From positions 380,243 through 444,242 of the forward strand of contig CAZYXJ010000001.1 of assembly GCA_964651115.1 (NCBI GenBank): DNA of 64,000 nucleotides. The letters are read 5' to 3'. The DNA comes from an uncultured Candidatus Saccharibacteria bacterium (GTDB lineage Bacteria > Patescibacteriota > Minisyncoccia > Phycocordibacterales > JACOZG01). Under the pieces are notes generated by a model. It ran no database searches. It saw only the letters and a list, made by a program, of their open reading frames with translations, and was not told the origin of the DNA. Shown piece after piece: positions 4,428-39,388 of the stretch (its first letter is position 1; each line of letters begins with the position of its first letter). Both the position numbers and the translations under genes were made by a program.

Positions 4428-5595
4428 TGACCCGAAAACAGAAGCCAAGCGGGCCCTAGGCGGTGAGGACCGCGTTTTGGCCGAGCAGGCCGCCGAGGCG
4501 GCTCTAGAAAAGCGCCGCCTCGAGGCGGCGCGAGCAATGGAAGGGGAAGTGGAGCGTAAGCGACGCGAAGTTCGAGAATTTCAGCGGCGCGAGCGAGAAC
4601 TCGCGACGGCCAATAGTGCCAGCGCCCAAGCCGCCGCCGCCGAACAGGCGGCGTGGCAGGCCGCCCAAACCAAAGCGGCGGCGGCCAAAGCCCAACGGCT
4701 CGAATCCCGCGAGGCGCAAGCCCGACTCGAACGCATCGACCAAGCCACGACGCAAGTTAGCGAACTCCAAAAAGCCCCCGTTAATCTTAACCCCCTCCGA
4801 ACGCTCCGAAGCGATATGGCCAAGGCCGTCCGCGAAGATGGCGTCTCGGCGGCCTCAATCGCCCAAAGCGAAGACGGGCGACGCGCTCTGGCCACGGGCG
4901 AACCCACCCCGCCAAGCTCACGCGGGCTCTGGATAATTATTAGTCTCGTCGTCATTGGTGGAGGCTTTGGTGGTTGGTGGTATTGGTCTAACCAATCTCC
5001 CGCGGTCTCCACGCCCACGCCCAACCCCGTCACTCCCGTGGCTAATCTAATTTTTGCCGAAAACACCTTAGATCTGCCGCTCGACACCGCTCGCACTCCG
5101 GGCGACGTAACCGGCGCCATCAACCAAATCCTTAACAGTCCACCAAACGGCTTGATCGCTCTAACGCCCACCACTGGCGGCGCCCCCATCTCTTTAATCG
5201 CGCTGGGAGAAAAAATCAAATGGCAACCACCCGCCTCCTTAGTGAACATTTTCGAACCAGCGTTTATGCTTGGCGCTCACCAGAGCGCCTCGAGCACCGA
5301 ACGTTTTCTGATTTTAAAAACTCGACTGTATGATCAAGCCTTTGCCGGCATGATTGCTTGGGAAAAGACCCTCGCCGATGATCTCTGGCCGCTCTTGACC
5401 AAAAACAGCACGGCCGCGCCCTTGATCACTAACTACAGCGACAAGTTGGTGCGCAACAAAGACGCCCGTCAAGCCACTCGTCCAGACGGTTCGGTAGTAA
5501 TCTTTTACGGCTTTCTAGACCAAAACACGATTGCGATCACCACTAATCAGGCCACCTTTAGCGAACTAGCCCTCCGCTACAGCAATCGTCAATAG
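4378..5595 (+). CDS. hypothetical membrane-anchored protein (coiled-coil N-terminus, one TM, C-terminal domain)
   Basis: TM segment LWIIISLVVIGGGFGGWWYW after a charged coiled-coil region; no recognisable family. Confidence 0.45.
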   Translation: MPKFPMPPTPSNPAENSDPKTEAKRALGGEDRVLAEQAAEAALEKRRLEAARAMEGEVERKRREVREFQRRERELATANSASAQAAAAEQAAWQAAQTKAAAAKAQRLESREAQARLERIDQATTQVSELQKAPVNLNPLRTLRSDMAKAVREDGVSAASIAQSEDGRRALATGEPTPPSSRGLWIIISLVVIGGGFGGWWYWSNQSPAVSTPTPNPVTPVANLIFAENTLDLPLDTARTPGDVTGAINQILNSPPNGLIALTPTTGGAPISLIALGEKIKWQPPASLVNIFEPAFMLGAHQSASSTERFLILKTRLYDQAFAGMIAWEKTLADDLWPLLTKNSTAAPLITNYSDKLVRNKDARQATRPDGSVVIFYGFLDQNTIAITTNQATFSELALRYSNRQ

Positions 5596-5636
5596 TTGGG
5601 CTTGCTATCCACGGGCGAGGGGAGTAGAATTGGATT

Positions 5637-5972
5637 ATGGCTATTGATTACGAATATTTTAAAGAGAAACTCTTAAACGAAAAGCGCCTACTGGAGGAAG
5701 AGCGGGCCAATCAACCAAGCAGTCCTGCGGCTGAGTTTAATGACGAGATTGCCGACCGACTCGAAGAGCAAGAAGAACGTCAGGCCACTAACGTTGAGGT
5801 GGATCATCGCTACAAATTAGTCCTCCACGCCCTCCGCCGTCTAGAAGAGGGGACTTATGGCATCTGCGAGATCTCGGGCGCGCCCATTGAGGCGAAACGC
5901 CTCGAGGCCAATCCCGCCGCCCGGACCGCCAAAGCTCATCTCGACCAAGAAGACAGTCTGCCTATTGCCTAA
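5637..5972 (+). CDS. DksA/TraR-family regulator with degenerate zinc finger
   Basis: C-terminus YGICEISGAPIEAKRLEANPAARTAKAHL resembles the DksA/TraR C4 region but keeps only one Cys; coiled-coil N-terminus. Confidence 0.55.
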   Translation: MAIDYEYFKEKLLNEKRLLEEERANQPSSPAAEFNDEIADRLEEQEERQATNVEVDHRYKLVLHALRRLEEGTYGICEISGAPIEAKRLEANPAARTAKAHLDQEDSLPIA

Positions 5973-5978
5973 ACCTCC

Positions 5979-7538
5979 ATGGTTTCCAAACTTCACTCGG
6001 CACAAGTTGTCGGCCTCTCGGCTAACCACATTATTGTTGAGGTTGATATTGCCAAGGGCCTCCACTCCTTTGCCATTGTTGGCCTACCCGACAAGGCCAT
6101 TGAAGAATCTAAAGATCGCATTAGCGCCGCGATCAAAAATTCGGGCTTTAAGTCTCCCCAAAAGAGCAACAAAAAAGTAATCGTTAGTCTCGCTCCGGCC
6201 GATCTAAAAAAAGAAGGGCCGGTTTTTGATTTAGCGATCGCAATGGCCTACCTGTTGGCCGGAAAAGAAATAAATTTTAACTCTGATCACCGTCTGATTG
6301 TAGGCGAGCTAGCCCTAGACGGAAGCGTCCGGGCAATTAAGGGCGCGCTGATGATTGCCCGCCTCGCCAAGAAGGCCGGCTTTCGCGAATTATATCTGCC
6401 CAGAGCTAACGCCGCCGAAGCCGCTTTGATCACCGATCTAACCGTCTACCCCGTAGACACACTCAGGCAGCTAGCTGATCATCTCTCGCCGCCCAATCCG
6501 ACGGACGAGCTAGAGCCACCCGTGCGACAAGAAATTATCCCGGCGCCCGCGACCAAGATCGTTTACGCCGAAGCTCATTACCCAAGCGACATGAGCGAGA
6601 TCCGCGGCCAAGAGACCGCTAAGCGGGGACTAGAGATCGCGGCGGCCGGCGGTCACAACGTGGCGATGTCTGGACCACCGGGAACCGGCAAAACGATGCT
6701 GGCTAAAGCCTTTACCTCCATCCTGCCACCGCTCTCGTTTAACGACATTTTAGAAGTGACGGGCATCCATTCGGCCGCTGGATTACTAGAAGAAACCTTA
6801 ATCACCGCGGCACCCTTCCGCTCACCTCATCACACCTCCTCCTATGTTTCGCTCGTCGGTGGCGGGGCCTGGCCTAAACCAGGCGAGATCACCTTGGCGC
6901 ATCGCGGCGTCTTATTTTTAGACGAATTCCCAGAATTTGAAAAACGAGTCATTGAGGCGCTCCGCCAGCCGCTCGAGGATCGAGTGATCAACGTCGCTCG
7001 AGCCCGAGGCAGTCTGAGCTTTCCGGCTGATTTTATTTTGATCGCGGCCATGAATCCTTGCCCCTGCGGCCACCGCGGCTCGCGCGGTCGGGAATGCGTC
7101 TGCTCACCAATGGCCCTAGCTCGTTATGGACGAAAAATTTCGGGACCAATTATTGATCGTATTGATCTGTGGCTAGAAGTCGGCCCAATTGATCACGAAA
7201 AATTAGCCGGGCCAACCCTGGGGGAAAGTTCGGCTAGTTTGCGAGCGCGAGTGGAAGGAGCGCGAGCCCGCCAGGCGGCGCGCCTGCGCGCCGCCGGCCG
7301 CGAAGCCCGGACCAACAGCCAACTAAACACCAAGGACTTACGCCTCTTGGCGCCTCTCTCGGAGAGTAGCACCAAACTGCTAAACGAGGCGGCCAAAAAA
7401 TTAGACCTTTCCGCTCGCGCCTATCATCGAATCATTAAACTAGCCCGGACCATCGCCGATTTGGCGGATGAGGCGGGGATTAAAGACGAACATCTCATCG
7501 AAGCTTTGCAATATCGCCCGCGAACTATTGCGGTCTAG
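5979..7538 (+). CDS. comM: YifB/ComM family Mg-chelatase-like AAA+ ATPase
   Basis: Lon-like N-domain; Walker A NVAMSGPPGTGKTM; Walker B LFLDEFPEF; Cys cluster CPCGHRGSRGRECVC; C-terminal Mg-chelatase ChlI region. Confidence 0.85.
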   Translation: MVSKLHSAQVVGLSANHIIVEVDIAKGLHSFAIVGLPDKAIEESKDRISAAIKNSGFKSPQKSNKKVIVSLAPADLKKEGPVFDLAIAMAYLLAGKEINFNSDHRLIVGELALDGSVRAIKGALMIARLAKKAGFRELYLPRANAAEAALITDLTVYPVDTLRQLADHLSPPNPTDELEPPVRQEIIPAPATKIVYAEAHYPSDMSEIRGQETAKRGLEIAAAGGHNVAMSGPPGTGKTMLAKAFTSILPPLSFNDILEVTGIHSAAGLLEETLITAAPFRSPHHTSSYVSLVGGGAWPKPGEITLAHRGVLFLDEFPEFEKRVIEALRQPLEDRVINVARARGSLSFPADFILIAAMNPCPCGHRGSRGRECVCSPMALARYGRKISGPIIDRIDLWLEVGPIDHEKLAGPTLGESSASLRARVEGARARQAARLRAAGREARTNSQLNTKDLRLLAPLSESSTKLLNEAAKKLDLSARAYHRIIKLARTIADLADEAGIKDEHLIEALQYRPRTIAV

Positions 7539-9045: not shown

Positions 9046-10971
9046 ATGGATCCTTTAGCTGGCCTTAATCCTTCGCAAACTACTGCCGCCGCGCACCAAA
9101 ACGGCCCACTGCTAGTGGTTGCCGGTGCGGGAGCCGGAAAAACGAAAACGGTCGCTCATCGCATCTGGAACCTAATCCACCACGGCGTGCCCCCCGAGGC
9201 GATTTTGGCCATCACCTTTACCAACAAAGCGGCCAGCGAAATGCGCGAACGAGTCCACCGCTTGGTCACAGCCGCGACCGGAGAAAATCGCCAGCCCTTC
9301 GTCTCGACCTTCCACGCGCTGGGAGTATTTATCATCCGAGAGAATGCCGCGCTTTTGGGATTAAGCAAATTTTTCTCAATCATCGATAAGGACGAAGCTC
9401 TGTCGGCCATTAAAAGTATTTTGAAGGAGCGCGGCCATGATCCAAAAACCGTCGAACCTAAAAAAGTTTTGAGCGCCATCTCACGCGCCAAAGGAGCGGG
9501 GATTACTCAAAGTAATTTTTCCGAGCGACACGTCGAAAGCTATTTTGGCGAAATTGTCTCGAGTGTTTGGCGCGCTTACGACTCACGACTCAAGGAGCAG
9601 GGCGCGCTCGACTTTGATGACCTGCTCCAAAAAACCGTCGAGCTCTGGAAAAATCATCCGGCCGTTTTGGAGCGCTACCAAAATCGCTGGCGCTATCTGC
9701 ACATCGACGAATATCAAGACACCAACAGCATCCAATATCAGATGGCGCGTCTTTTGGCCACGCGTCATCGCAACATCTGCGTCGTCGGCGACATTGATCA
9801 ATCAATTTATTCTTGGCGCGGCGCTGACTACAAAAATATTATGCGCTTCGAAGAAGATTACCCCGATGCCACCGTCGTCACCTTGGAACAAAATTATCGT
9901 TCGACCAAAACTATTCTGGCGGCGGCTAACGCGGTCATTAAAAAAAATCGCTCCCGTCGCGAAAAAAATCTTTTCACCGATAACGAAGACGGCGAATTGA
10001 TCAAATTGATTGTGGCTTTTGATGGCAACGACGAGGCCGCCAGGATCGCGAACGAAGCGAACACTCTCATCCGCGGCGGAACCAAAGCCAGCGACATCGC
10101 CGTGCTCTATCGAGCCAACTTCTTATCGCGCGCGCTGGAAGAAGCTTTTTTGCGCGCTGGCGTCCACTACCATGTTTTGGGCACCCGCTTTTTTGAACGG
10201 GCCGAAGTCAAAGATGTTTTAGCTTTCCTCAAAGCCGCGCTTAATCCGCAAGACATTGAGAGCACTAAGCGAATCATTAATGTGCCGGCCCGCGGCATCG
10301 GCAAAGTAACGCTGGCCAAATTATTTGCTCACGGGCCAGACTCCCTCGCCAAAGAAGTGCGGAAAAAAGTTAACGACTTCTACGAAACTATGGCCGACAT
10401 CAAGCGCGTCGCCGAACAAGAAAAACCATCAGTCACCATTAAATACATTGTTGAACGAAGCGGACTGGCCAACGCTCTGAAGGCCGGCGGTGATGACGAT
10501 CTCGAGCGTCTAGAAAACGTCCGCGAACTCGCCACCCTCGCGACTAAGTATGACGATCTCGGACCAGAGGAGGGGATTTGGAAACTTCTCACTGAGGCGG
10601 CGCTAATGTCGGATCAGGACGAATTAACTGAGGATCAAAAGGGTGTCCACTTGATGACCGTCCACGCCGCCAAGGGTCTAGAATTTGATTACGTTTTTGT
10701 AGCCGGATTAGAGCAAGACTTATTCCCTAGCGGACGATCGAAAAACGAAGATGCCGACCAGCGTGACGACGAGGAGGAGCGACGACTATTTTACGTGGCG
10801 GTGACGCGAGCCAAAAAACGACTCTACTTAACTTACGCGCAGATGCGCACGATCTATGGCCAGCGAATGATGACTTTGCCCTCAGAATTTATCGGCGACA
10901 TCGCGCCCGAATTACTGGAGGCCGAAGACGCCGAAGATCCATTTAAAAATTCTTATTTTATTGATTTTTAA
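9046..10971 (+). CDS. pcrA: UvrD/PcrA-family ATP-dependent DNA helicase
   Basis: Walker A AGAGAGKTKT; helicase motifs YLHIDEYQDTN, VVGDIDQSIY, QNYRS and the C-terminal VHAAKGLEFDYVFVAGLE motif. Confidence 0.85.
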   Translation: MDPLAGLNPSQTTAAAHQNGPLLVVAGAGAGKTKTVAHRIWNLIHHGVPPEAILAITFTNKAASEMRERVHRLVTAATGENRQPFVSTFHALGVFIIRENAALLGLSKFFSIIDKDEALSAIKSILKERGHDPKTVEPKKVLSAISRAKGAGITQSNFSERHVESYFGEIVSSVWRAYDSRLKEQGALDFDDLLQKTVELWKNHPAVLERYQNRWRYLHIDEYQDTNSIQYQMARLLATRHRNICVVGDIDQSIYSWRGADYKNIMRFEEDYPDATVVTLEQNYRSTKTILAAANAVIKKNRSRREKNLFTDNEDGELIKLIVAFDGNDEAARIANEANTLIRGGTKASDIAVLYRANFLSRALEEAFLRAGVHYHVLGTRFFERAEVKDVLAFLKAALNPQDIESTKRIINVPARGIGKVTLAKLFAHGPDSLAKEVRKKVNDFYETMADIKRVAEQEKPSVTIKYIVERSGLANALKAGGDDDLERLENVRELATLATKYDDLGPEEGIWKLLTEAALMSDQDELTEDQKGVHLMTVHAAKGLEFDYVFVAGLEQDLFPSGRSKNEDADQRDDEEERRLFYVAVTRAKKRLYLTYAQMRTIYGQRMMTLPSEFIGDIAPELLEAEDAEDPFKNSYFIDF

Positions 10972-10985
10972 TTGCTCGGATATAT

Positions 10986-11013
10986 TTGACTTAAAAATCA
11001 CCCGGCGTAAGAT
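10986..11013 (+). promoter_or_regulatory. predicted sigma70 promoter (TTGACT-N16-TAAGAT) for the 11041 gene
   Basis: -35/-10 hexamers at correct spacing, followed by AAAGGAGG Shine-Dalgarno and ATG. Confidence 0.45.
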
Positions 11014-11040
11014 GATGCTCAGACAAGAAAGGAGGCCGTT

Positions 11041-11472
11041 ATGGCCCAGATCATCGTTCGCCAACACTTTGGCAAGCAATCTCTAACTCCCCCTGTCGCC
11101 GCACTGGCATACGGAGCCATATCCAGGAGCATGGATGGATCGAGGGGTTATTGGTACCAAATCAAAAAACTGGTCATCGAACTTTCTTTTTTCCGCCCCA
11201 GCCTGGACGGACGAAAATCCATCCGCGTACCGGAAGGAGTCCTAGCGGTTAGTCTAACGATCAGCCTCCAGCACTCAGGCGTACGAGTGACCTCGCAGCG
11301 ATATTTAAATGGCCCGAACAACGTCACCGAACGCGACATCCAAGACGCCATCTCGTTCGCGTGGGAGATGTCCCTCAAGCAAGAACAAAAGTGTGCTAAT
11401 AGGAATAAAAAGGCCCAAGAAGAGATCCGGCAAACCATCTCCCATCTACAAGATCAAACCTGGTGCCCATGA
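11041..11472 (+). CDS. hypothetical protein (143 aa)
   Basis: Strong Shine-Dalgarno AAAGGAGG, own promoter and own terminator; no recognisable domain. Confidence 0.5.
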   Translation: MAQIIVRQHFGKQSLTPPVAALAYGAISRSMDGSRGYWYQIKKLVIELSFFRPSLDGRKSIRVPEGVLAVSLTISLQHSGVRVTSQRYLNGPNNVTERDIQDAISFAWEMSLKQEQKCANRNKKAQEEIRQTISHLQDQTWCP

Positions 11473-11478
11473 TCGCTC

Positions 11479-11518
11479 GCCCCAACTCTGGGGCTTTTTC
11501 TTTTTTCCAAAATTGACA
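11479..11518 (+). repeat. terminator/UP-element/-35 module copy 1 (GCCCCA-loop-TGGGGC hairpin, CTTTTTCTTTTTTCCAAAATTGACA)
   Basis: Hairpin and T-run immediately followed by AAAATTGACA. The same ~35-nt core recurs at 12061-12130, 14313-14380, 14682-14745 and 39268-39360. Confidence 0.6.
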
Positions 11519-11594
11519 AATTTTAAATATTAAGTAGTTTTAATGACGGAATCCGCGTTAAGTCAGAGACCACAAGCACACAAGAAGAATAACA

Positions 11595-12060: not shown

Positions 12061-12130
12061 CCCCGACCGTCAGCCGACGATCGGGGTCTTTCTTTTCCAA
12101 AATTGACACCGCGCTCGGGGGGAGTAGGAT
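12061..12130 (+). repeat. terminator + promoter module copy 2 (TTGACA-N16-TAGGAT)
   Basis: CCCCGAccg...CGATCGGGG hairpin and T-run, then AAAATTGACACCGCGCTCGGGGGGAGTAGGATAG. Near-identical to the 14341-14382 copy through the -10 element. Confidence 0.6.
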
Positions 12131-12163
12131 AGTCCAAACAGGTCATCGAGAAAGGAGGCCACG

Positions 12164-12768: not shown

Positions 12769-13209
12769 ATGAGCGACGAGATCAATCGACCAAAAGTGGG
12801 AGTAGGGGTGATGATTATTAAAGATGGGAAAGTTTTGATGGCCAAACGCAAAGGATCGCACGGTGCAGGAGAATACGGCTTCCCCGGTGGCCACTTAGAA
12901 AATTTAGAGTCGTTTGAAGATTGTGCCGTCAGGGAAACGCGCGAGGAGTGTGGTATTGAAATAAAGAATATTAAATTTCTTTACGTCACCAACATTACCA
13001 AGTACGCCCCTAAACATTATGTTCACATTGGCGTGACGGCTGAATGGGCGAGCGGCGAACCAAAAACTTTGGAATCAGAAAAGGCCGAAGGGTGGCAATG
13101 GCACGATTTAAATAATTTACCCGAGGGCCCAACTTTCGAATTCTGCAAATTAGCTTTTGATGCCTACAAAACCGGCAAAGTTTATTACCCACTAATGAAA
13201 GCTGACTAA
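12769..13209 (+). CDS. Nudix hydrolase (MutT family)
   Basis: Nudix box GGHLENLESFEDCAVRETREECGIE (GX5EX7REUXEEXGU). Start placed at the ATG downstream of the predicted promoter; the track ORF begins at 12706. Confidence 0.8.
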   Translation: MSDEINRPKVGVGVMIIKDGKVLMAKRKGSHGAGEYGFPGGHLENLESFEDCAVRETREECGIEIKNIKFLYVTNITKYAPKHYVHIGVTAEWASGEPKTLESEKAEGWQWHDLNNLPEGPTFEFCKLAFDAYKTGKVYYPLMKAD

Positions 13210-13308
13210 AATACCGTTTGACTTTAACTAATTTTTGTGTTAGTTACAAAACAGAGCTCTTCGATAAGAGCCTAGAATAAAACACCTCTTTCAAGAAAGG
13301 AACGGTCT

Positions 13309-13803
13309 GTGGAACCTGCAAAATTCGTAAAAACACGCAAGTTCAAGATGCTGGTTGGAGTAGGAGGAGGAGTCTTCGTGCTCTCCTTCATCGTCTTTCT
13401 CGTTTGGTACGGCTTCTGGGTCAACTTTGTCGAGAACTACCAATACGGCTTCGTCTACGACAAGTTCAGCGGGGAAATCACCCCCCTGGATCACACCGGC
13501 TGGGTGGTGCGCAACCCCTGGCACTACAGCGTCCATTCGATCGACACCAGACCCTACCAGGTGTCGATCAGCGCCAACGAACGCGTTCTGAACGCGAAGC
13601 TTATCCGCTTCAACACCGAAGGCATCAAGACCTTTGTGGAGTGGCACGGACGGGCCGCCGGCGACGACACTTACAGCCTCAAAGAGATTCTGAAGTGCTA
13701 CGCCTTCGATCGTGATGAGGGCCGTGATTGCCCCTTCCTCACCGTCATCAGCGTGTTGGCGCCGAATCAGGCTGCCGGCCCCGTTGCCACTAAGGAGAAG
13801 TAA
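13309..13803 (+). CDS. hypothetical N-terminally anchored protein, paralog of the next gene
   Basis: N-terminal TM (MLVGVGGGVFVLSFIVFLVWYGFW). Shared motifs with the next ORF: ..SIDTRPYQVSI / ..RVDTRPMRVAV, NAKLIRF / SAKLIQF, EW..TVEGFRYW, CPFLTVI / YPFLRIL. GC-rich codon usage. Confidence 0.55.
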   Translation: MEPAKFVKTRKFKMLVGVGGGVFVLSFIVFLVWYGFWVNFVENYQYGFVYDKFSGEITPLDHTGWVVRNPWHYSVHSIDTRPYQVSISANERVLNAKLIRFNTEGIKTFVEWHGRAAGDDTYSLKEILKCYAFDRDEGRDCPFLTVISVLAPNQAAGPVATKEK

Positions 13804-14279
13804 TGCGGACTATCCAACCGGGGATCATCCTGAGTAAAGCCTGGCATAACCGCTGGGTGAAAAGGATCACGCCCGTACTCACTGGCGCCGTACTCTTCTA
13901 CCTGCTTTGCCTTAACCACAACGAGCCCACCCAAATCGGCATTGCTCGCAATCGAGTAAACGGTGCTATGTGGACTCAAAGAGGAGGCTGGCACCTGACG
14001 TCGCCCTGGGTTTCCGTGGCCCGCGTTGACACTCGTCCCATGAGAGTGGCGGTGAACTCGGCCGGACACGGTTACAGCGCCAAGCTGATCCAGTTTGCCC
14101 CTGAACACTGGCAAGAGTTCGTGACCGTAGAAGGCTTTCGCTATTGGTGGTGGGCCAACCGGTTCTCCTTCAACGGAGGGTACGACGAGGAGTACCGCGG
14201 AATGAGAGACATTCTCCGAGGCCATGCCTATGGAACCAAGTCATACCCGTTTCTGCGGATACTCAACGAGTACCAGTAG
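13803..14279 (+). CDS. hypothetical N-terminally anchored protein, paralog of the previous gene
   Basis: Start ATG overlaps the upstream stop (TAATG), implying translational coupling. N-terminal TM ITPVLTGAVLFYLLCL; paralogous motifs listed for the previous gene. Confidence 0.55.
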   Translation: MRTIQPGIILSKAWHNRWVKRITPVLTGAVLFYLLCLNHNEPTQIGIARNRVNGAMWTQRGGWHLTSPWVSVARVDTRPMRVAVNSAGHGYSAKLIQFAPEHWQEFVTVEGFRYWWWANRFSFNGGYDEEYRGMRDILRGHAYGTKSYPFLRILNEYQ

Positions 14280-14312
14280 AAACCACTCACCAACGACAAG
14301 TTCTCTTTCGCC

Positions 14313-14380
14313 CTGACGCACCAGCGCCGGGGCTTTTTCTTTTTTCAAAAATTGACACCGCGCTCGGGCGAGAGTAGGGT
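14313..14380 (+). repeat. terminator + promoter module copy 3 (TTGACA-N17-TAGGGT)
   Basis: GGGGCTTTTTCTTTTTTCAAAAATTGACACCGCGCTCGGGCGAGAGTAGGGTAG, then AGGAAGGA Shine-Dalgarno and ATG at 14415. Confidence 0.6.
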
Positions 14381-14414
14381 AGTTTTGGATCTATTTAACT
14401 TAGGAAGGACAAGA

Positions 14415-16662: not shown

Positions 16663-17520
16663 GTGAAGAGAAAAATATTTATTTTCGCGCTTGTCGCGAT
16701 TCTTGTTGTAGGTGGAGGAGTGATTTTCTTGTGGGTACTAGGAAACAAAACTCTCCAAGACCAAGAGCTCGCGGCTCAAGGTTTTAAAAAAATTGATCAG
16801 CCAGACTCAGACGGGGATAGTCTGGCTGATTGGGAAGAAGAATTGTGGGAAACCGATCCACAAAAACCCGACACCGATGGCGACGGCGCCAGCGACGGAG
16901 AAGAAATTAAAGCCCGTCGCGACCCGCGACGGGCTGGACCAGGTGACGAGATACAGACCGCAAAAGATAATTTAAATATTTTAATTTATCAGGCGCTTAA
17001 ATCTAAGGATAATGGATTAATTATCCCCGAGACACCACTAGCATCCCCATCAGTAAAACAAGTAAAAGTTACAACAACAAACGAACGAACTGCCGAGGAA
17101 GCAATTCAATACGCGAGGAAGTTCGTGGCCGCCACTGCCCCCTACTTGCAATACTCCGGACCCAACCCCGAAAAATCGCTGCTAGAAAAAATCGACAACG
17201 AGAAATCCTCAGCCACAGAAAACCTGACCAATTACGGTTACATGCTCGAGGGGGTGACCCAATCACTTGAAGACATAAGCACCCCAGAAGAAGTTAGTTC
17301 TCATCACATTAAACTAATAACTCAAATAAAAAAAATGGCTGTTTTAGTTCAAAATATGCTTGAAGCCGAAAAACAACCAATTATCGCCCTGCAAGCTGGC
17401 CAACAATTTCCGATTGAGCGAGCATACGTTAGCCAAGCAATTTTAGATATAAACCAATATCTGATTAGATATGGCGTTTCGTTAACACCGGAAATGCTTA
17501 GTGGGATTCTTCGATTTTAA
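16663..17520 (+). CDS. membrane-anchored protein with thrombospondin-type-3-like Ca-binding Asp repeats
   Basis: N-terminal TM; DSDGDSLADWEEE and DTDGDGASDGEE (DxDxDG) motifs; first gene of the T4SS-like cluster. Confidence 0.45.
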   Translation: MKRKIFIFALVAILVVGGGVIFLWVLGNKTLQDQELAAQGFKKIDQPDSDGDSLADWEEELWETDPQKPDTDGDGASDGEEIKARRDPRRAGPGDEIQTAKDNLNILIYQALKSKDNGLIIPETPLASPSVKQVKVTTTNERTAEEAIQYARKFVAATAPYLQYSGPNPEKSLLEKIDNEKSSATENLTNYGYMLEGVTQSLEDISTPEEVSSHHIKLITQIKKMAVLVQNMLEAEKQPIIALQAGQQFPIERAYVSQAILDINQYLIRYGVSLTPEMLSGILRF

Positions 17521-17523
17521 AAC

Positions 17524-20500
17524 ATGAAACTCGGATCAAATATAAAAAAAGCTAGCTCCGGAATGATATTTATTTGGATAATTTCCTGTTTGATTTTTGT
17601 GCCCATAATGGCCGCGGCTCAAAATAAGACCAGTGTTGACCAGCGACGTCAGCAAGATAGCCAAATTTGCCAAGCGGAAGCAGAGAATAACAGAAACTTT
17701 AACTCACTCCCTGGGGGACGTAAGCTGGCTGATTCTTTGGCCCTAGGACTAGCCGAAGGTTTTAATACGGTTTTGAAAAATACCCTAGAGACCAAGGTTC
17801 CCGCCATCATGTCGAGGCAGATCAGCCAAAAATTACCTGCTCTCATAAACGGAAACCTCCAGCGCCAACTTGCCCCCGCCATCAACAATCAAATTAGAAC
17901 AATGAGAAGCCGGGGGCTTTCTGACATTCAAATAAAACAAGAGTTGCAATCAATCATCGCTCAGGCAATTGAGGCCATCGTATCTGAAACAATCAACGCC
18001 CACGCGGGAACACTAACTCAGCAAGGGATCCAAACTGCTTTGCCACAAGAGCTAGCACGCCAAATGGGTGATCAAGTGCCAAGTATTTTGGAAGCTAGTG
18101 GATTTAATCGCCAGACTCAAGAGATGGTCGATCAACTAGTAAATCCAATTAACCAGCTTTTGCCCCTCGTTATCCAATTAATGACTCAGGTTCAAAATGT
18201 TGGCGACGTTCAACAAATTATTCAACAAATTTTCGCCCAAGCGGTACAAAAAATTATTACAGATGCAATAAGTAGCAAGAACCCAGAAATCGGCCCCCTA
18301 CTTGGATCAGAAATCACTATCTCCGACGCCGATCGTAAATTAATCGCGGAAAAAATTTCAACCGGAGTCGCCAGCACCACTCAGCAAACCCTTTATAAAT
18401 CAAGGAATTTAGTTAACCTGTCCAATGAAGTATCCCGACGCTATGCCTCACAACTGACCCCCTTATTAATCTCTCAACTCACCCCCCAAATATCTCAAGC
18501 CTTTAGAAATGGCCCCACCGGATCCTCATTAAACAACTCAATTAACAACATTCTAACGGGACCAGGGTTCGACTTGTCGCGCGGCATGTCTGGGGATTTT
18601 CTAATGCCGATAATGAACTCAATCGAAAAACCCCTGGCCGACGTTGTTCAAACCCAAGTAGCGTCGTGGACAAACAGCCTCCAAAGTCTTGAGCAAACAA
18701 ATCCTGCTTTGTTCGAAAGTTTAACTTTCGAACAATCCGATCTTTTGGGTGAATCGGCAACACTAGATGCGGAATTTGCTGATCGAGGAATGGGCGGTAG
18801 TTATGGTGGCGTAGAAAATGGCAACCAAGCGGCGGCCGAGGCTACAGTAACCGACCCGGAATTTGCTGATCGAGGAGTAGGTAATGTGGCCGCGGTAAGC
18901 GACGAAGCTGCTCAGGCCGTTAAAGGCAACGGATCAGAAATAACTTCAAACGCCCTAAGCGGAATGGGTTCAAAAATAAGTGATGCTTTTAAGGGTAGTC
19001 TCGCTAACGGTTTGGCGGGGGGTCTAGCTGGTCTGGTGGATAATGTGCCAGTGGTTGGTGGGCTACTCTCTGGTGTTGTTCGCCAAGTCACCCTACAAGC
19101 CATGCAACAAGTATTGGGGGTCGGTGTGGGTGCTGGAGTAGGCGGAGGAGCCACTGGTGGCGGTGGCGGTGGAATCCAGGGCGAAGCTAAAACCGGTTTA
19201 AAACTTGGCACGACTGTAGGCATACTACCCGTTAGTAGTCATCAATTTGCTGGCATGAGCCTGCTTCTCGACGCCATCTTTAACTTCTTGCACTTAGGAC
19301 TTACGGCCTCCAATGTAAACACCGGCGGTATTTTGGGTAACACTTCAACCAGCAATCAAAACGAAAAACAACAAATAACCATCGGTCAAGAAACTCAAGC
19401 TCTAGTAACCCAAATGTGCACTCTAGAAAAGCAGCTCAAAGGATCTCTTTACAACATGGAGGACGTTTTAACTAAACACAACCCAAACGCCAACAAATCA
19501 TCGCTCTTAAAACTCGTTGGAATGCTCAAAGGAGGGACAACCTACTTCTCCCAGTATTACGATGATGGTAGCAAAGGAGGAGTGGCCGCGGGCGACGGGA
19601 CCACTACGCGCAGTGGTCAATCGGGAGTGGCCCAGTTAGATAAAAACATCAAACAGGCCGGGCAAGATGAGAGCAACCTAGTCTTAACCACTGCCCAAAC
19701 CAGCCAAAATCCCCTGACCCAGGAGGCGATAGAACTATACCGCAGCAGTCGCGCGGATGAAAACGTCTTTGCTAGTTGGATCGCGCCCGAAGATTGTTCC
19801 AAGCTAAATAACCCAGGGTCACTTTCTTCTCAAGAAGCGTCTGACCTGGCGGTCGAATGTTCTAAACCAGCCAATAACAAGTTCGGACTGTTTACTCAAG
19901 TGAGACAGGGCGCCCTATCGGCGGAGGCGCGAGGCCAAGAAGATGCCCAAACCAAGTTTGTCGCCTATAGCGGAGTCAACGAAAAGAGATACTGCTCCGG
20001 AGGCTGGACCACCGACCCACTTGAAGCCGATCTGAGCGATTTAACACTACCTGGCGAAAACGGTGACATCCTTGGACAAACGCCAATTGGCGCACCACGG
20101 CAATATTGTAAAGAATGGACAACTCTAACCCCCGGATCAATCAACTATCTGTACATGTTTGAATTAATCGCTTCGATAATAAGAAAAATCGGCTCGGCTG
20201 ATTCCGTGGGAGAAGATGTGGCCAATAACTATGCGGTAGTACCAGAACGAATAGTGCAAAACCTGTCCACCAAACCAGAGGAGCAATTGTTTGACCCAAA
20301 TGATGATCCCTGCCCGGGAACAGATCCCTGCCCGGGAACTGGTTGGAATAAAAAACAGGTTTCTGAAGGATCAGCCCTGGAAGAGGCCTTCTCTCAAGGA
20401 CTCGATGAAGGTCTAGCAAACACCGTAGATAATCTTTCTAATGTTTTTGACACTATCAGCTACGACGCAATTAATTCTCCCACTAGTGGCACTGTTTTCC

Positions 20501-20880
20501 CCGCCAACCCCCTTGACTTCTCTCTACCCGCCATCGACTTTAACCAACTATTTCAAAATCAGTTGGCGGTGCAGCCGGCTTTGGCCGCCCCCGGCATCAG
20601 CATTCAACAAGCCACTACCGACAGCACCCCCGGCATTAAACAATCGAGAGTCTCGTGGAAGACCACCGGCGCCGTAACTTGTTTTGCCTCCACGGATTGG
20701 CTAAGCGGCACTTGGCCCGGCGACATTAGCACCACCACCGCTGGCAGTCTACTGGAGACGGTGGGGGAAATAACCCTCAACTACCCAGCCACCACCACAA
20801 CAGACCTGACTTACGGCTTAAACTGCTATAACTCCCAAGGCGTGAGCAGTCAGACGGAAGTTAAAGTAACCAATGAATAA
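17524..20880 (+). CDS. large (1118 aa) secreted/surface low-complexity protein of the T4SS-like cluster
   Basis: N-terminal TM; Q-, S- and G-rich regions (GGGATGGGGGG); internal tandem repeats (EFADRG x2, DPCPGT x2); no enzymatic motif recognised. Confidence 0.5.
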   Translation: MKLGSNIKKASSGMIFIWIISCLIFVPIMAAAQNKTSVDQRRQQDSQICQAEAENNRNFNSLPGGRKLADSLALGLAEGFNTVLKNTLETKVPAIMSRQISQKLPALINGNLQRQLAPAINNQIRTMRSRGLSDIQIKQELQSIIAQAIEAIVSETINAHAGTLTQQGIQTALPQELARQMGDQVPSILEASGFNRQTQEMVDQLVNPINQLLPLVIQLMTQVQNVGDVQQIIQQIFAQAVQKIITDAISSKNPEIGPLLGSEITISDADRKLIAEKISTGVASTTQQTLYKSRNLVNLSNEVSRRYASQLTPLLISQLTPQISQAFRNGPTGSSLNNSINNILTGPGFDLSRGMSGDFLMPIMNSIEKPLADVVQTQVASWTNSLQSLEQTNPALFESLTFEQSDLLGESATLDAEFADRGMGGSYGGVENGNQAAAEATVTDPEFADRGVGNVAAVSDEAAQAVKGNGSEITSNALSGMGSKISDAFKGSLANGLAGGLAGLVDNVPVVGGLLSGVVRQVTLQAMQQVLGVGVGAGVGGGATGGGGGGIQGEAKTGLKLGTTVGILPVSSHQFAGMSLLLDAIFNFLHLGLTASNVNTGGILGNTSTSNQNEKQQITIGQETQALVTQMCTLEKQLKGSLYNMEDVLTKHNPNANKSSLLKLVGMLKGGTTYFSQYYDDGSKGGVAAGDGTTTRSGQSGVAQLDKNIKQAGQDESNLVLTTAQTSQNPLTQEAIELYRSSRADENVFASWIAPEDCSKLNNPGSLSSQEASDLAVECSKPANNKFGLFTQVRQGALSAEARGQEDAQTKFVAYSGVNEKRYCSGGWTTDPLEADLSDLTLPGENGDILGQTPIGAPRQYCKEWTTLTPGSINYLYMFELIASIIRKIGSADSVGEDVANNYAVVPERIVQNLSTKPEEQLFDPNDDPCPGTDPCPGTGWNKKQVSEGSALEEAFSQGLDEGLANTVDNLSNVFDTISYDAINSPTSGTVFPANPLDFSLPAIDFNQLFQNQLAVQPALAAPGISIQQATTDSTPGIKQSRVSWKTTGAVTCFASTDWLSGTWPGDISTTTAGSLLETVGEITLNYPATTTTDLTYGLNCYNSQGVSSQTEVKVTNE

Positions 20881-23383
20881 CTGGCTTAAAAACCTATTGC
20901 TTCTTTCCCTCATCCTGCTCAGTACTGGGTGGGGAAGTAAAGCATGGGCAATCAGCGATAGCTATGACAACATAGGCAATCCGACCACGACCCTCGCTGA
21001 AGCAAAAAATGAAAAACCCACTGCCGAGGGTTACTCACCCAAGGCCTGGGCACTAGCAAATCAGCTAGAGAGCGTGGATAATCAAATCAAAACGAACCCT
21101 CCACCAGCCAATCTAGCCGAGCTCTCCTCACTGAAAGAAAATCTGCTTCTGGAATATAGCTGCTACAAAAGTGGCGTCTGCCACGATGGCGCTCCGTGGA
21201 TCCCAATGTCTATTTACGGCACAGATGCAGATGCCTACAATTTCGCTCGTCTGCAAGCCATACAAAGGCATTGGTCCGGAAATTCTGGAATAAACCAATC
21301 CAATACCAAAGCATATGAAGAGGCTCGCCAAGCGATGTCTCGACGCATGGCCGATCTCCAAACCGAGCTGGCCAAGGACCCCGAGAGAAAAGCGCTCGGC
21401 GATGAAGCTTCTAAACAATTCTACAACCAAGACATCAGAAAAGACATCGAGCAGAGGCGCAATTGTGGCCTGTGGAATTGGGGTCCATGTTTTGTTGACG
21501 CCGTAAACTACCTCACTCAAACGATTATCAAACCAGTAGGAGAAAAGCTAGTAAAAGGGGCTAATTATCTGTTTAACGCTTCTTTCCAGTTTTCCGTCCG
21601 AGACTTCTCAACCTACGCCTCCAAACAATCGATTAAAGACGGTTGGACAATTGTACGAGACCTCACTAATATCGGCTTTATTTTCGCTCTACTATATGCC
21701 GCCACCTCGATTATCCTCCAACTGAAAAGCGTTGACGGCAAACGAATGATCGGAATGATCGTCGTCGGAGCACTTTTGGTAAACTTTAGTGCCTTCTTTG
21801 TGGGCATAGTCATTAACGCCAGCAACGTCTTGGCTAATCAAATCTATCTCGCCGCGGCGGGGGATGAACTACTTGATGGAACACCAGATTTGGCCGGTAA
21901 AATAATTAAATACCGAAACACTGTCGGGAACGGCTCTCAAACCACGCTAGCCCCCGATCAAACTTCGACTGACGCTCTATCGGCTTCGATTATGAATGGT
22001 TTAGGCTCCGCAACCCTCGCCATCGTCACCGCCGTCGTGCTATTAGCCGGAGCCCTAATGATGCTTACTCGTTTTTTGAAGCTTCTCCTGGTTATCGTTT
22101 TCTCTCCTATCCTTTTTCTAGGACTAGGTCTTCCACTAGCTCGTTCCTGGGGCGGCGAATGGGTGAAAAAAACTCTGTTCTCAGAAGCCTTCTTCGCCCC
22201 CGCCTACCTACTAATGCTGTTAGTGGCTTCTAAATTTATTGCCGTGGCCGAATTTAATCTTCCGGGCAAACCATCTAGCTTTGTTAACGCCGTTTTCTAT
22301 AATTTTATTACCGTTGGCCTAATGGTTGGGTCACTGCTGATCGCGCAGTTCGTGGGCCATTCTTCCGGTGGTTACGTTGCCAATAAACTTAAGCAGTATG
22401 GGCGCAGTTTAGGCCTGGGCCTAGCTGGAGCTAGCACCTTTGGCGCGGCTGGACGCTTAGGCCGATCAATTATCGGACGGGCGGCCAAAAACGAGCTCGA
22501 AGATCCAAGAACCCTAAATCGGTCTAATCAGCGCGGGGTTAGCGGCTGGCTAGCAAAACAAACTCTTAAGGTGGCCGACTTCGCTTCCAAATCTAGTTTT
22601 GACGCTCGCGGCTTAGATTCAGTTAAAAAATTAGGCCTTGGTGAGGGCCAAAAAGGTGGCTACGTGGGTGACATCAAACGCAAGGCGGAGGCCGCCGGAA
22701 AAATCGCTAAGCTTATAGGCGCTAAAGACAGCGAGGGGAGCGAAGTTAGCGCCAGAGAACAAGCTCGCATCGACGATAAAAAACTCGAAGCACGAACTCG
22801 CGCTGACGAGATCCAGGCGCAAGCCAAATCGGCCCAGGATGCGGCAACCACTAGCGCTCAAGCAGAAATTAACGCCAAAAAAGCTGAACAAGCACGAGAA
22901 ATCGATCGCATCGGTCAAGAAGCTAACGCGCAACTACAAAGTAACGGAGCCAAACCAGAAGAAGTTAAGGCGGAGCGAGAAAGAAAGGAGGAAGAGGTTC
23001 GCCAGCGCATTGAAGCGCAAATTAAGGAAGTCGAACGAAAGCGCGATGAAAGCATTAGCAAAGCTAGTAGCCAAATTAAAGAGGCAGAAAAATTACGCAC
23101 CGCGGCCGAAAAGCTCCAGCCCCGAAAACGTGTCCAAGAACTGGCCGATCAATACGATGACGCCGGCGGAAAAGAGCCTCAATCTTGGTACCGCTTTAAT
23201 CGTTGGCGCGGCAAGGTGACCCGCACGCGCAAAGCTCAAGCCGCCGCCATTCGAGAAAGCGCTAAATCCAAAAAGGAGAAGTACCAAGAGAACTTAGCCA
23301 AGCTTCTAGAAAAAGCAGAGAAAGAAGAAGGGGAGACGAATGCCGAAAAGACGCCCAATGAACCACCTAAACCAACTGCCTAA
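20873..23383 (+). CDS. VirB6/TrbL-like polytopic membrane protein (TcpH-like) with long charged coiled-coil C-terminal tail
   Basis: Signal peptide, then at least 6 hydrophobic helices across residues ~250-500, then a K/E/A-rich tail. Size and architecture match Gram-positive VirB6 homologues (~830 aa). Confidence 0.5.
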   Translation: MNNWLKNLLLLSLILLSTGWGSKAWAISDSYDNIGNPTTTLAEAKNEKPTAEGYSPKAWALANQLESVDNQIKTNPPPANLAELSSLKENLLLEYSCYKSGVCHDGAPWIPMSIYGTDADAYNFARLQAIQRHWSGNSGINQSNTKAYEEARQAMSRRMADLQTELAKDPERKALGDEASKQFYNQDIRKDIEQRRNCGLWNWGPCFVDAVNYLTQTIIKPVGEKLVKGANYLFNASFQFSVRDFSTYASKQSIKDGWTIVRDLTNIGFIFALLYAATSIILQLKSVDGKRMIGMIVVGALLVNFSAFFVGIVINASNVLANQIYLAAAGDELLDGTPDLAGKIIKYRNTVGNGSQTTLAPDQTSTDALSASIMNGLGSATLAIVTAVVLLAGALMMLTRFLKLLLVIVFSPILFLGLGLPLARSWGGEWVKKTLFSEAFFAPAYLLMLLVASKFIAVAEFNLPGKPSSFVNAVFYNFITVGLMVGSLLIAQFVGHSSGGYVANKLKQYGRSLGLGLAGASTFGAAGRLGRSIIGRAAKNELEDPRTLNRSNQRGVSGWLAKQTLKVADFASKSSFDARGLDSVKKLGLGEGQKGGYVGDIKRKAEAAGKIAKLIGAKDSEGSEVSAREQARIDDKKLEARTRADEIQAQAKSAQDAATTSAQAEINAKKAEQAREIDRIGQEANAQLQSNGAKPEEVKAERERKEEEVRQRIEAQIKEVERKRDESISKASSQIKEAEKLRTAAEKLQPRKRVQELADQYDDAGGKEPQSWYRFNRWRGKVTRTRKAQAAAIRESAKSKKEKYQENLAKLLEKAEKEEGETNAEKTPNEPPKPTA

Positions 23384-23386
23384 TTT

Positions 23387-24166
23387 ATGACAACGCAACC
23401 CTTAACTGATCGCCTAAAAGAACTCCCAGCCGACTGGCAAGCTGACCTCCAGCGGCTCAATTTACCCGAGGTTGTCAAAAAGCTAGCTGCTGATTACAAG
23501 TTATCGCGTGAGCAAGAAGAACAACTAGAAGCCGAAACCGTTCTGGTGGCCATCGGTTTGGAGTTACGAACCGACCTAACCGCTAATCTAACCGCGGCTC
23601 TACACAGTGATTCGGCCGCGATCATCTCAATTAAAGATCGTTTAGAACGAGATGTTTTTAACCCCTTAGCCAAACACCTCGACCAAGCGGAAAAAGAAAT
23701 CAAGGCCGCGGAAGCGGAGGAGCGGGAAAAATACAAACACTTGCCCCTCGAACTCCAAAAAGTAATTCTCGACGCCCGAACCGAAGAGATCTTAGCCGCC
23801 CTTAGCGACAAGTACCAACTCCACATTGACCAAGCTGGTGCCCTGTACGACGTTACCGATCAGGTTTTAATGGGTAAAATTAAGTCCCGGGACTTTGTTG
23901 CCGAACTCGTTCGGACCTCCTCGATGAGTACCGATCTCGCTAGCAAAATAGCCGCGGATCTTAATCAGCAATTATTCCAGCCAGTCCAAAACACTCTCCG
24001 AACACTGGAAAGTCAGCCGCCAACCGTCTTCGAAGCCAAGTTAAAAGGGCTCTGGAGCGGCAATCAAAATCAAAGTTCGAACGAAATTTTGATCAAACCC
24101 CAACCCGCCACTACCGCCACCACACCCACCAAAGTTGCCGATCCCTACTTAGAACCCTTAGAATAA
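23387..24166 (+). CDS. hypothetical acidic soluble protein (T4SS-like cluster)
   Basis: No TM and no recognisable motifs; tightly packed between the VirB6-like and VirB3-like genes. Confidence 0.4.
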   Translation: MTTQPLTDRLKELPADWQADLQRLNLPEVVKKLAADYKLSREQEEQLEAETVLVAIGLELRTDLTANLTAALHSDSAAIISIKDRLERDVFNPLAKHLDQAEKEIKAAEAEEREKYKHLPLELQKVILDARTEEILAALSDKYQLHIDQAGALYDVTDQVLMGKIKSRDFVAELVRTSSMSTDLASKIAADLNQQLFQPVQNTLRTLESQPPTVFEAKLKGLWSGNQNQSSNEILIKPQPATTATTPTKVADPYLEPLE

Positions 24167-24170
24167 AGAC

Positions 24171-24572
24171 ATGAACTTCCAAGTACCCCAATTTATCGAG
24201 GTCGAAGACAAAATTTTCGGCCCCTTTACCTTTAAACAATTCGTCTACTTGGCTGGTTCGGCTGGTGCCGCTTTTCTGATTTGGGTTTATATCCCGGTTC
24301 GCTTTGTTGCCTTAATTTTCGTCATTCCGGTTTTGATCTTAGGGCTCTTGCTAACCTTTTACCGAGTTAATAATCGCCCATTTGTTTCTATTTTGGAGGC
24401 CGCGGCCCGCTACGCTCTAACTCACAAACTTTATATCTGGCAAAGATCTAGTGCTCCCACTAAAACTAACGTCACCGCTCCGACGACCTCGGGTTTAAAA
24501 ATTCCCAAACTCTCTGACAGCAAATTAAAAGACCTCTCCTGGAGTCTAGATGTGAAAGAAAAAATCCAGTAA
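24171..24572 (+). CDS. PrgI/VirB3-like small two-TM protein
   Basis: EDKIFGPFTFKQFVYLAGSAGAAFLIW + second TM; immediately upstream of VirB4 as in MPF_FA systems. Confidence 0.5.
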   Translation: MNFQVPQFIEVEDKIFGPFTFKQFVYLAGSAGAAFLIWVYIPVRFVALIFVIPVLILGLLLTFYRVNNRPFVSILEAAARYALTHKLYIWQRSSAPTKTNVTAPTTSGLKIPKLSDSKLKDLSWSLDVKEKIQ

Positions 24573-24592
24573 CAATGGTACACTAATAGGCA

Positions 24593-25240
24593 ATGGCCGC
24601 TGACACTAAAGCCAAAGCTTCGCAAGAATTTATTCCGATTCAAGAAATTCGGGATGGGGTAGTCATCCTTAAAGATGGGGGAATGCGTTTAGGTTTGATC
24701 GTCTCCTCGATTAACTTTGCGCTCAAATCGGCCGACGAACAAACCGCGATTCTGCTCCAGTTCCAAAACTTTCTTAACTCTCTGGATTTTGACATCCAGC
24801 TGTTTGTAGAATCCCGCAAACTAGACATCATGCCTTACCTCACCACCCTAGAGGAAAGATTGGTGGCTCAAACCAACGATTTGATGAAGGTCCAAACTCG
24901 AGAGTACATCGAATTTATCAAAAAATTTACTGAGACCACCGACATTATGTCGAAGAGTTTTTTCGTGATCGTCCCTTTCAATCCTTCAATCATCAGCAAT
25001 GCCAAATCACAAAGTTTAATTGGCCGATTCTGGCCCGGCGGCCAACCATCACCTAGTGCCGAGCAAGACCAGCTTAATAATTTTGAAGAAAATCGAACTC
25101 AATTAGAACAGCGAGCCGCCGTCGTCGCCGGCGGCCTGGGGGCCGCCGGCCTCCGGGTCTCCCAACTCGGCACCGAGGAATTAGTCGAGTTATACTTTAA
25201 GATGTTTAATCCGGGGGAACGCGAAATCCCTTCGATCTAA
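24593..25240 (+). CDS. VirB4/TrbE-family conjugation ATPase, N-terminal fragment (split gene)
   Basis: IPIQEIRDGVVILKDGGMRLGLIVSSINFALKSADEQTAILLQFQNFLNSL matches the VirB4 N-terminus of Gram-positive systems. Stops at 25238-25240, 4 nt before the next ORF in a different frame. Confidence 0.55.
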   Translation: MAADTKAKASQEFIPIQEIRDGVVILKDGGMRLGLIVSSINFALKSADEQTAILLQFQNFLNSLDFDIQLFVESRKLDIMPYLTTLEERLVAQTNDLMKVQTREYIEFIKKFTETTDIMSKSFFVIVPFNPSIISNAKSQSLIGRFWPGGQPSPSAEQDQLNNFEENRTQLEQRAAVVAGGLGAAGLRVSQLGTEELVELYFKMFNPGEREIPSI

Positions 25241-25244
25241 ATTT

Positions 25245-28087: not shown

Positions 28088-28089
28088 CT

Positions 28090-28452: not shown

Positions 28453-28455
28453 ACC

Positions 28456-38488: not shown

Positions 38489-38609
38489 AGCGGCATTTTA
38501 GCATATTTGGTGAGGCCTAACCCTTGACAAGATTTTAATTAAATGCTAGTTTCCGCAGTGAAGAACTCGGGTGAGTTCGAGATCTTTTAAAGAAGGAAGG
38601 AGGCGCGTA

Positions 38610-39369: not shown

Positions 39370-39388
39370 AGTTCGGTGTTCGAACTCG
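39370..39388 (+). promoter_or_regulatory. perfect 7-bp inverted repeat (GAGTTCG-gtgt-CGAACTC) between promoter and Shine-Dalgarno, operator-like
   Basis: Exact palindrome located in the 5' leader of the second PEP-CTERM gene. Confidence 0.3.

Follow-up and report, generated by a model that had tools for sequence, protein, structure and literature searches.

The 64,000-nt stretch analysed here (the window, in whose numbering all coordinates are given) comes from contig CAZYXJ010000001.1 of an uncultured Candidatus Saccharibacteria bacterium and contains two overlapping open reading frames (ORFs), A and B, which form a translationally coupled pair of paralogous genes and whose products, on the evidence of structure models, very probably carry an SPFH-like (Band-7) fold. 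ORF A (13309..13803, + strand) has a GTG start and encodes the 164-aa A-type protein, in which a basic N-terminus and a transmembrane (TM) helix precede an SPFH-like domain about 113 aa long. ORF B (13803..14279, +) starts with ATG and encodes the 158-aa B-type paralog. Both frames were read from the ORF listing and the raw sequence. At the junction, gTAATGc, the TAA stop of A (13801-13803) overlaps the ATG start of B (13803-13805), the final A of the stop codon doubling as the first letter of the start codon. A first-pass annotation, made from the letters alone, had reported two ORFs of these lengths with a TAATG overlap, and both are present in the sequence.

A Shine-Dalgarno-like AAAGGAA (13296..13302, +), likewise read from the sequence, lies 7 nt upstream of the GTG of ORF A, and the Shine-Dalgarno sequence of ORF B, AAGGAG (13792..13797, +), lies within the last codons of A, at a distance of 5 nt from the B start. 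One Logan metagenome gene call places the start of A at V24, which would give a protein of 141 aa and speaks against the start at 13309. We retained 13309 because the N-termini of homologs are comparable in the alignments, because the NCBI annotation holds an identical 164-aa product (P0508) and because AAAGGAA precedes this GTG. Downstream of B, a terminator-like hairpin (14310-14333, -16.1 kcal/mol, z -2.7) is followed by UUUUUCUUUUUU; the hairpin and U-run together (14310..14345, +) are likely to mark the end of the A-B transcript. The hairpin, whose stem holds an internal loop, was overlooked by a simple terminator scan. The strong promoter that had been proposed for the pair did not materialize: a sigma-70 consensus scan found no promoter-like site within 13209-13309, upstream of A. 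An antisense ORF of 152 aa (13767-14225, -) lies inside ORF B, and similar antisense ORFs occur in 31-33 of the homologous loci described below. It was rejected as a gene, being a shadow ORF whose recurrence merely follows from conservation of the GC-rich genes on the sense strand.

Judged by their sequences, A and B are anciently diverged paralogs. A direct BLASTP comparison gave 27% identity over 124 aa (E 2e-10), and hhalign of the two family alignments gave a probability of 99.4% and an E-value of 2.2e-21 over 128 columns, so that the tandem paralogy suggested by the first-pass annotation now rests on significant pairwise alignment. The shared motifs that it had quoted, (I/V)DTRP, AKLI(R/Q)F and (C/Y)PFL, are real: they are present in both ORFs and conserved throughout the family. 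Each family also has invariant motifs of its own. In A these are IDxRP, NAKLV.F, WHGR.AG and DCPFL; the invariant residues include D79, R81, P82, Q84, N95, K97, W112, H113, G114 and C141-P-F, and the invariant polar or charged set comprises D79, R81, Q84, R92, N95, K97, H113 and C141. The specific motifs of B are WWANR.SFN.GY.EE.RG and DILRGYAY, with N38, R49, N50, D76, R78, E110, N119, R120, S122, N124, R132, D136 and R139 as the invariant polar or charged set. Relative to A, the B protein has about 13 extra residues rich in Trp and Tyr (EGFRYWWWANRFSFNGGYDEEYRG), a conserved aromatic insertion that contains RYYWWANR.

Predicted fold and membrane anchor

AlphaFold2 models of the two proteins were built from 40-sequence alignments and reached a predicted local distance difference test score (pLDDT) of 92.4 and a predicted template modelling score (pTM) of 0.77 for A, and a pLDDT of 88.5 and a pTM of 0.76 for B. 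The models are alike: an N-terminal helix is followed by a meander of beta-strands, by helices (two in A, three in B) and by a final strand. In A, the SPFH-like domain (aa 38-150; 13420..13758, +) consists of seven beta segments, two helices and the final strand; in B, the model and the family alignment place it at aa 37-157 (13911..14273, +). After the last strand, the models run out at residues 150 (A) and 157 (B), and the chains stop 8-14 residues past the last SPFH strand, about 14 in the case of A.

When the models were compared with the Protein Data Bank (PDB) using Foldseek, SPFH-superfamily chains filled ranks 1-37 for A, with a best E-value of about 1e-4 and a probability of 1.00, and ranks 1-34 for B. 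The matches of A include prohibitin (8rrh), HflK/C (7vhq and 7wi3) and erlin (9vvj and 9o9u), as well as stomatin (9oh9), flotillin (9bq2), QmcA (8z5g) and vault; the top match of B was erlin 9vvj_A, at 3.6 Å over 109 columns. The first non-SPFH matches in the PDB appeared only at E >= 0.4 and a probability below 0.15 (for A, E 0.4 and probability 0.13). A search of the BFVD library with A gave a concordant result, all named entries among the top 25 being Band-7/SPFH/stomatin proteins of phages or giant viruses; about one third of these 25 entries are nameless. Across the PDB searches with A and B and the BFVD search with A, the E-values reach 5e-5.

Profile comparison pointed in the same direction. 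We assembled a 55-sequence SPFH alignment from E. coli QmcA, HflK and HflC, one SPFH protein of the Candidate Phyla Radiation (CPR) and SPFH genes from viral contigs; the latter were used instead of QmcA homologs, for which the search returned only near-identical enterobacterial proteins among the matches listed. Against this alignment, the combined A+B profile gave an hhalign probability of 85% (P 6.4e-6) over 62 columns. The Band_7 N-terminal pattern (v.e.e.G..; PGL.f..P; vd.r) was matched in register: the TM helix, the 'E..G' strand, G[WL]xxxxP[WF] on PGLxfxxPF and [IV]DxR on the vd.r strand. The A profile alone reached 64%. A small alignment of only three sequences (HflK, HflC and QmcA) gave 2.9%, which is too weak.

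Several results weigh against this assignment. The B profile alone has no significant hhalign signal (probability 2% against the same 55 sequences). A Pfam-A hmmscan at E <= 10 found no family for either protein, Band_7 (PF01145) included, and PDB sequence-profile searches with A and B returned chance matches only (E about 1-3), with no SPFH chain among them. The Foldseek TM-scores are modest at 0.4-0.5, as normalized to a query that includes the TM helix, and the long alignments superpose with a root-mean-square deviation of 6-10 Å. These scores, these deviations and the missing Band_7 hidden Markov model (HMM) match would also be expected if the resemblance were an artefact of modelling, or of any small alpha/beta fold joined to a TM helix, and the family were structurally new. 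We hold this to be very improbable: for two separately modelled paralogs, and in two independent libraries, nearly all of the leading matches are SPFH proteins (probability 1.00), local superpositions on SPFH chains are at 3.5-3.7 Å over 108-118 columns, and the profile-profile register of the SPFH N-terminal motifs has a P of 6.4e-6. A and B are probably remote members of the SPFH superfamily. The first-pass annotation had not recognized the domain, and this stands insofar as the family is absent from Pfam and NCBIfam (a scan of the latter gave no credible match for A or B); the fold itself, however, is recognizable as SPFH/Band-7 by Foldseek of the models.

The domain is a shortened one. At about 115 aa it has roughly two-thirds of the canonical SPFH length, with a reduced helical layer, and an extended alignment with QmcA, of low confidence, places the deletions of A and B in that layer. 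The CC1 and CC2 coiled coils and the C-terminal lid are missing from A, from B and from the family. We scanned 1.84 billion (1.84e9) representative sequences with the A+B profile using HMMER (E <= 1e-3), a scan aimed at bridging to canonical Band_7 proteins. It yielded 242 family clusters at 50% identity, of which the best 150 are 71-240 aa long, and stayed within the short family; hence the family lacks the coiled coil and does not merge with canonical Band_7 at the HMM level. The longer members P0245, P0255 and P0274 were checked for additional domains and turned out to have over-called starts or a frameshifted tail.

An N-terminal membrane anchor, a feature of the SPFH superfamily, is present in both proteins according to the AlphaFold2 helices and hydropathy, in agreement with the single N-terminal TM helix noted at first pass. 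The modelled helix spans residues 3-37 in A and 6-36 in B (as two helices, 6-15 and 17-36), and the hydropathy peaks lie at residues 14-32 and 19-37, with window averages across the families of 2.6 and 2.2, respectively. From these data together with the charge distribution, we placed the anchor of A at about aa 14-37 (13348..13419, +), preceded by the K/R-rich segment MEPAKFVKTRKFK, and that of B, from the helices and charge analysis, at about aa 17-36 (13851..13910, +), preceded by a basic N-terminus. Family-wide, the net charge is +1.1 (A) and +3.0 (B) on the N-terminal side of the anchor and -1.4 (A) and -0.6 (B) on the C-terminal side. The net charge thus changes from positive to negative across the anchor in A-type and B-type proteins alike, and the closest structural relatives (HflK/C, prohibitin and erlin) are TM-anchored proteins that do not face the cytoplasm; on these grounds, A and B are predicted to be type-II membrane proteins in an N-in/C-out orientation, with the domain on the outer face of the cytoplasmic membrane.

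Distribution, pairing and genomic setting

A homolog search in a collection of 5.8 billion proteins returned 142 homologs of A and 276 of B, with 50-75% identity to the query. No Pfam domain occurs in any of them, and the source names, where given, are all 'hypothetical protein'. All homologs from named organisms belong to Patescibacteria (Parcubacteria, Pacebacteria, Moranbacteria, Komeilibacteria and Kerfeldbacteria), and loci were also found in Uhr-, Andersen-, Doudna-, Azam-, Giovannoni-, Nomura- and Harrisonbacteria. Some metagenome-assembled genome (MAG) records with the pair (e.g. L008, L015, L019, L036 and L049) are titled Gammaproteobacteria, Bdellovibrionales, Woesearchaeota or Nanoarchaeota. 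The A and B proteins from MAGs so titled have 49-65% identity to the query, like those from named CPR MAGs, which suggests mislabelled records rather than transfer between phyla.

A scan of one genome per GTDB species, with A-type and B-type ORFs assigned by family HMMs, gave 51 loci. In 48 of these, as well as in three further long contigs (L004-L006), a B-type ORF is directly preceded by an A-type ORF of the same orientation, which bears out the expectation that homologous pairs would recur in other genomes. The three exceptions are a contig end (L049), a run of N upstream (L040) and an IS30-like insertion in A (L021), so the A-then-B order is kept in every evaluable locus. In the last case, a Candidatus Giovannonibacteria MAG, an IS30-like transposase ORF (5063-5989 of that locus) either splits A or forms an in-frame fusion with it; only about the last 50 residues of A are left (WHGR...KSYAY...FLTITREL), and B is intact. 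Of the 50 junctions evaluated, 31 read ATGA/GTGA and 4 read TAATG, so that stop and start codons overlap in 35; most of the others have a gap of 0-11 nt. Given these overlapping or closely spaced junctions, translational coupling, proposed at first from the single overlap, is a conserved property of the pair.

A second peculiarity of the genes is their base composition. As the first-pass annotation had observed, their codon usage differs from that of the neighbours: the GC content at third codon positions (GC3) is 0.758 in A and 0.692 in B, compared with a mean of 0.545 (sd 0.072) over 46 long ORFs of the window (z about +3 and +2), which ranks both genes at or near the top of the window. Since GC1 and GC2 are unremarkable in both genes, the excess comes from synonymous codon choice. 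It is not confined to this genome. The GC content of the pair exceeds that of the surrounding 12 kb flanks in 45 of the 51 loci, by 5.7 points on average, and follows flank GC with a constant upward offset (r = 0.81). Recent horizontal gene transfer as the cause of the excess was therefore rejected, and the oddity appears intrinsic to the A/B genes in most lineages; expression-linked codon selection, mRNA structure or something else is a possible cause.

An elevated GC3, the lack of any family annotation and five family matches on contigs catalogued as viral could together be taken to mean that A and B are a horizontally acquired accessory pair, either a toxin with its immunity protein or a host-interaction effector, driven by a strong promoter. 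This explanation is largely refuted, and we regard it as the most improbable of those considered. A and B are each other's paralogs; they retain 50-75% identity, a fixed order and coupling in 51 genomes; and the GC excess recurs and tracks the host. PADLOC returned 0 hits for A and B, and PHROGs gave only marginal matches (E 0.05-0.07) to families of unknown function. The contigs catalogued as viral (26-482 kb) resemble pieces of CPR chromosomes. Nor does the setting have the look of the accessory array that had been supposed, the neighbours being housekeeping genes in the vicinity of dnaA, with no promoter consensus upstream of A: a M23/LysM peptidase, UvrD, an asparaginase-like protein and NUDIX lie upstream, RsmA/KsgA and DUF192 downstream, and dnaA itself at 31029, 17 kb away. 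With paralogous, highly conserved partners and no variable or conflict-type neighbourhood seen, a toxin/immunity-like pair is unlikely; a novel envelope function, the other suggestion made at first pass, is plausible. As far as can be read from the sequences, the inheritance of the pair is vertical and core-like, because identity is 50-75% across CPR groups and the GC content has ameliorated to each genome.

All-against-all clustering of the flanking ORFs from 55 loci revealed no conserved third gene. NUDIX recurs in 8 of the 55, and the other clusters that recur consist of shadow ORFs antisense to A and B. In one locus (L015), a canonical 318-aa SPFH/Band-7-like gene (10576-11532, +; HMM E 5e-28) lies about 4 kb downstream of the mini pair; the pair is thus not simply replacing a canonical SPFH protein, and both can coexist.

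Other features of the window were recorded alongside the pair. The intergenic regions contain two nearly identical copies of an element about 45 nt long (12094-12140 and 14343-14390, +), the second copy lying just downstream of ORF B. In this element, a terminator hairpin with its U-run precedes AAAATTGACACCGCGCTCGGG(C)G(A/G)GAGTAGG(A/G)TAGT, with a promoter-like -35 TTGACA and a fixed spacer; an exact 17-mer is present in two copies, against 0.06 expected by chance. A pair of neighbouring GC-rich ORFs, encoding 220 and 215 aa (38571-39233 and 39376-40023, both +), gave weak NCBIfam PEP-CTERM matches (E 0.004-0.008; TIGR02595 score 18.0 against a cutoff of 16). The first of them ties with ORF A for the window maximum in GC3 (0.76); its N-terminus resembles a signal peptide, and its C-terminus ends in a 'PEP + hydrophobic + RRR' tail. 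Sorting signals of the PEP-CTERM/exosortase type would be unusual for a Patescibacteria genome. A long co-directional gene run (16663-29679, +) has the appearance of a type-IV-secretion-like cluster; within it lie a TraG/VirB4-like P-loop ATPase (25245-27080) and, matching nothing in Pfam or NCBIfam, two ORFs of very large size (17524-20880, 1118 aa, and 20873-23383, 836 aa). Elsewhere lie PilM (56361-57458) and a T2SS-E/PilB ATPase (41189-42883, minus strand).

Possible assembly and relation to known SPFH systems

Taken together, A and B constitute a paired, lid-less mini-SPFH family restricted to Patescibacteria and missing from Pfam and NCBIfam. A literature search on SPFH proteins in Patescibacteria/CPR, Parcubacteria HflK and related subjects found no description of it. 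The explanation that we favour, with moderate confidence as far as its full mechanistic statement goes, is that of a lidless, probably outward-facing, heteromeric membrane scaffold of the HflK/HflC kind. In such a scaffold, the basic cytoplasmic N-terminus and the single TM helix would anchor each protein in the membrane and the trimmed domain of about 115 aa would be displayed on the outer face of the cytoplasmic membrane, with translational coupling keeping A and B in fixed proportion. The two would associate laterally through their SPFH domains, as an A/B heterodimer or an open alternating ring, and in the CPR envelope the scaffold might organize or restrain a membrane protein, several of them, or lipids; by analogy only, FtsH would be one candidate client. 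We infer the hetero-oligomerization, scaffold function and outward topology; association of A with B is suggested because known two-paralog SPFH systems alternate their subunits and because coupling enforces stoichiometry.

Among known systems, E. coli HflK/HflC (7vhq, 7wi3 and 9cz2) offers a close parallel in gene arrangement: hflK and hflC are adjacent, co-directional paralogous genes with a near-abutting stop and start (2 nt apart), and their products have a single N-terminal TM helix followed by an SPFH domain that is matched by both models, in the N-in/C-out orientation predicted for A and B. The HflK/HflC complex is built from 24 alternating subunits (PMC12048511). HflK and HflC are, however, much larger (419 and 334 aa versus 164 and 158 aa), and A and B are without CC1 and CC2 and also without the C-terminal stretch of roughly 110 residues from which the 'hat' of the 24-mer is made (PMC12048511); in addition, A and B have fewer helices in the SPFH domain and no Band_7 HMM match. 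Prohibitin PHB1/PHB2 (8rrh, 9o9z and 9unl) and erlin1/2 (9vvj and 9o9u) provided the best Foldseek matches for A and B. They too are heteromers in which two paralogs alternate, anchored by an N-terminal TM segment and with the SPFH domain outside the cytoplasm, features that in A and B would be mirrored by the putative heteromer and the predicted topology. Unlike A and B, they are proteins of eukaryotic organelles with 270-300 aa or more, and the structural alignments show 10-20% sequence identity. The broader Band_7 (PF01145)/SPFH group, including QmcA, stomatin and flotillin, shares the alpha/beta SPFH fold and membrane anchoring; A and B differ from it in falling below HMM thresholds, in their length, in the absent coiled coil and in having invariant motifs of their own.

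The missing parts bear directly on assembly. In cage-forming SPFH scaffolds, assembly is driven by CC1/CC2 and the C-terminal domain (CTD), of which the wall and the lid consist (PMC12478178). The complex formed by prohibitin consists of 11 PHB1-PHB2 heterodimers in which the paralogs alternate; its lid, comprising CC2 and the CTD, is needed for assembly of the complex, and CC2 for the PHB1-PHB2 interaction (PMC12478178). As A and B have neither lid nor CC2, a prohibitin-type assembly is impossible for them. An A/B oligomer would be limited to lateral SPFH-SPFH and TM contacts, and a heterodimer or open ring is therefore likelier than a closed cage. To our knowledge, all SPFH structures solved so far are closed or nautilus-like cages held together by coiled coils and a lid.

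Certain considerations tell against the scaffold. Oligomerization of A and B is conjectural; the topology assignment stands on the positive-inside rule only; neither a conserved neighbour nor an FtsH gene recurring near the pair in the 55 loci points to a client; and the heavy conservation of polar residues (D, R, N, H and E) could mean ligand binding or catalysis. This last point leads to the main rival explanation, in which the SPFH-like fold has been re-purposed as an extracytoplasmic module that binds a ligand, lipid or the cell wall, or acts as an enzyme, the paralogs pairing up as a heterodimer that serves as a receptor or sensor. For a domain of 115 aa there are indeed many invariant positions with a charged or polar residue, the coiled coils critical for assembly are missing, and the aromatic insertion of B (RYYWWANR) would suit an interface or the stacking of a ligand. 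Such a role is nonetheless unlikely in our estimate, as no similarity to enzyme or binding-domain families was found in Pfam, NCBIfam or the PDB, and no metabolic or cell-wall gene is consistently linked to the pair across the 55 loci.

A second rival explanation would make A and B a dedicated FtsH modulator, functionally equivalent to HflK/HflC, whose SPFH domains touch the extracytoplasmic domain of FtsH. The pair consists of coupled SPFH paralogs with a predicted N-in/C-out topology, arranged like hflK-hflC; HflK/C chains are among its best structural matches; and the contact of E. coli HflK with FtsH is made by its SPFH domain and not by the lid (PMC12048511). We nevertheless consider this specific role quite improbable. 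HflK/HflC is linked to FtsH, whereas no FtsH gene lies within the 64-kb window or recurs in the flanks of the 55 loci, and a cage that confines FtsH is impossible without CC1, CC2 and the CTD. Prohibitin and erlin match the models equally well, which makes the resemblance one to the SPFH superfamily at large, with nothing specific to HflK/C.

Within the scaffold that we favour, a more far-reaching variant is that the SPFH domains of the lid-less pair, with no coiled coil, build a heteromeric ring or fence in which A and B alternate, lying outside on the membrane of the ultra-small CPR cells, or else that the pair represents the ancestral state of the superfamily, before the coiled coil was acquired. 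We put this forward as a tentative possibility. If such a ring without coiled coils is formed, the cage would be unnecessary for SPFH function, and the pair would be the simplest natural model of a lone SPFH domain.

Patescibacteria genomes are dominated by unannotated membrane proteins. For one of the more conserved lineage-restricted 'hypothetical' pairs among them, the present analysis offers a fold, at the confidence stated above, and a testable hypothesis, and the family could be added to Pfam and NCBIfam. Consisting of a TM anchor and a trimmed SPFH domain only, and conserved as a coupled pair, A and B would isolate the function of the SPFH domain itself.

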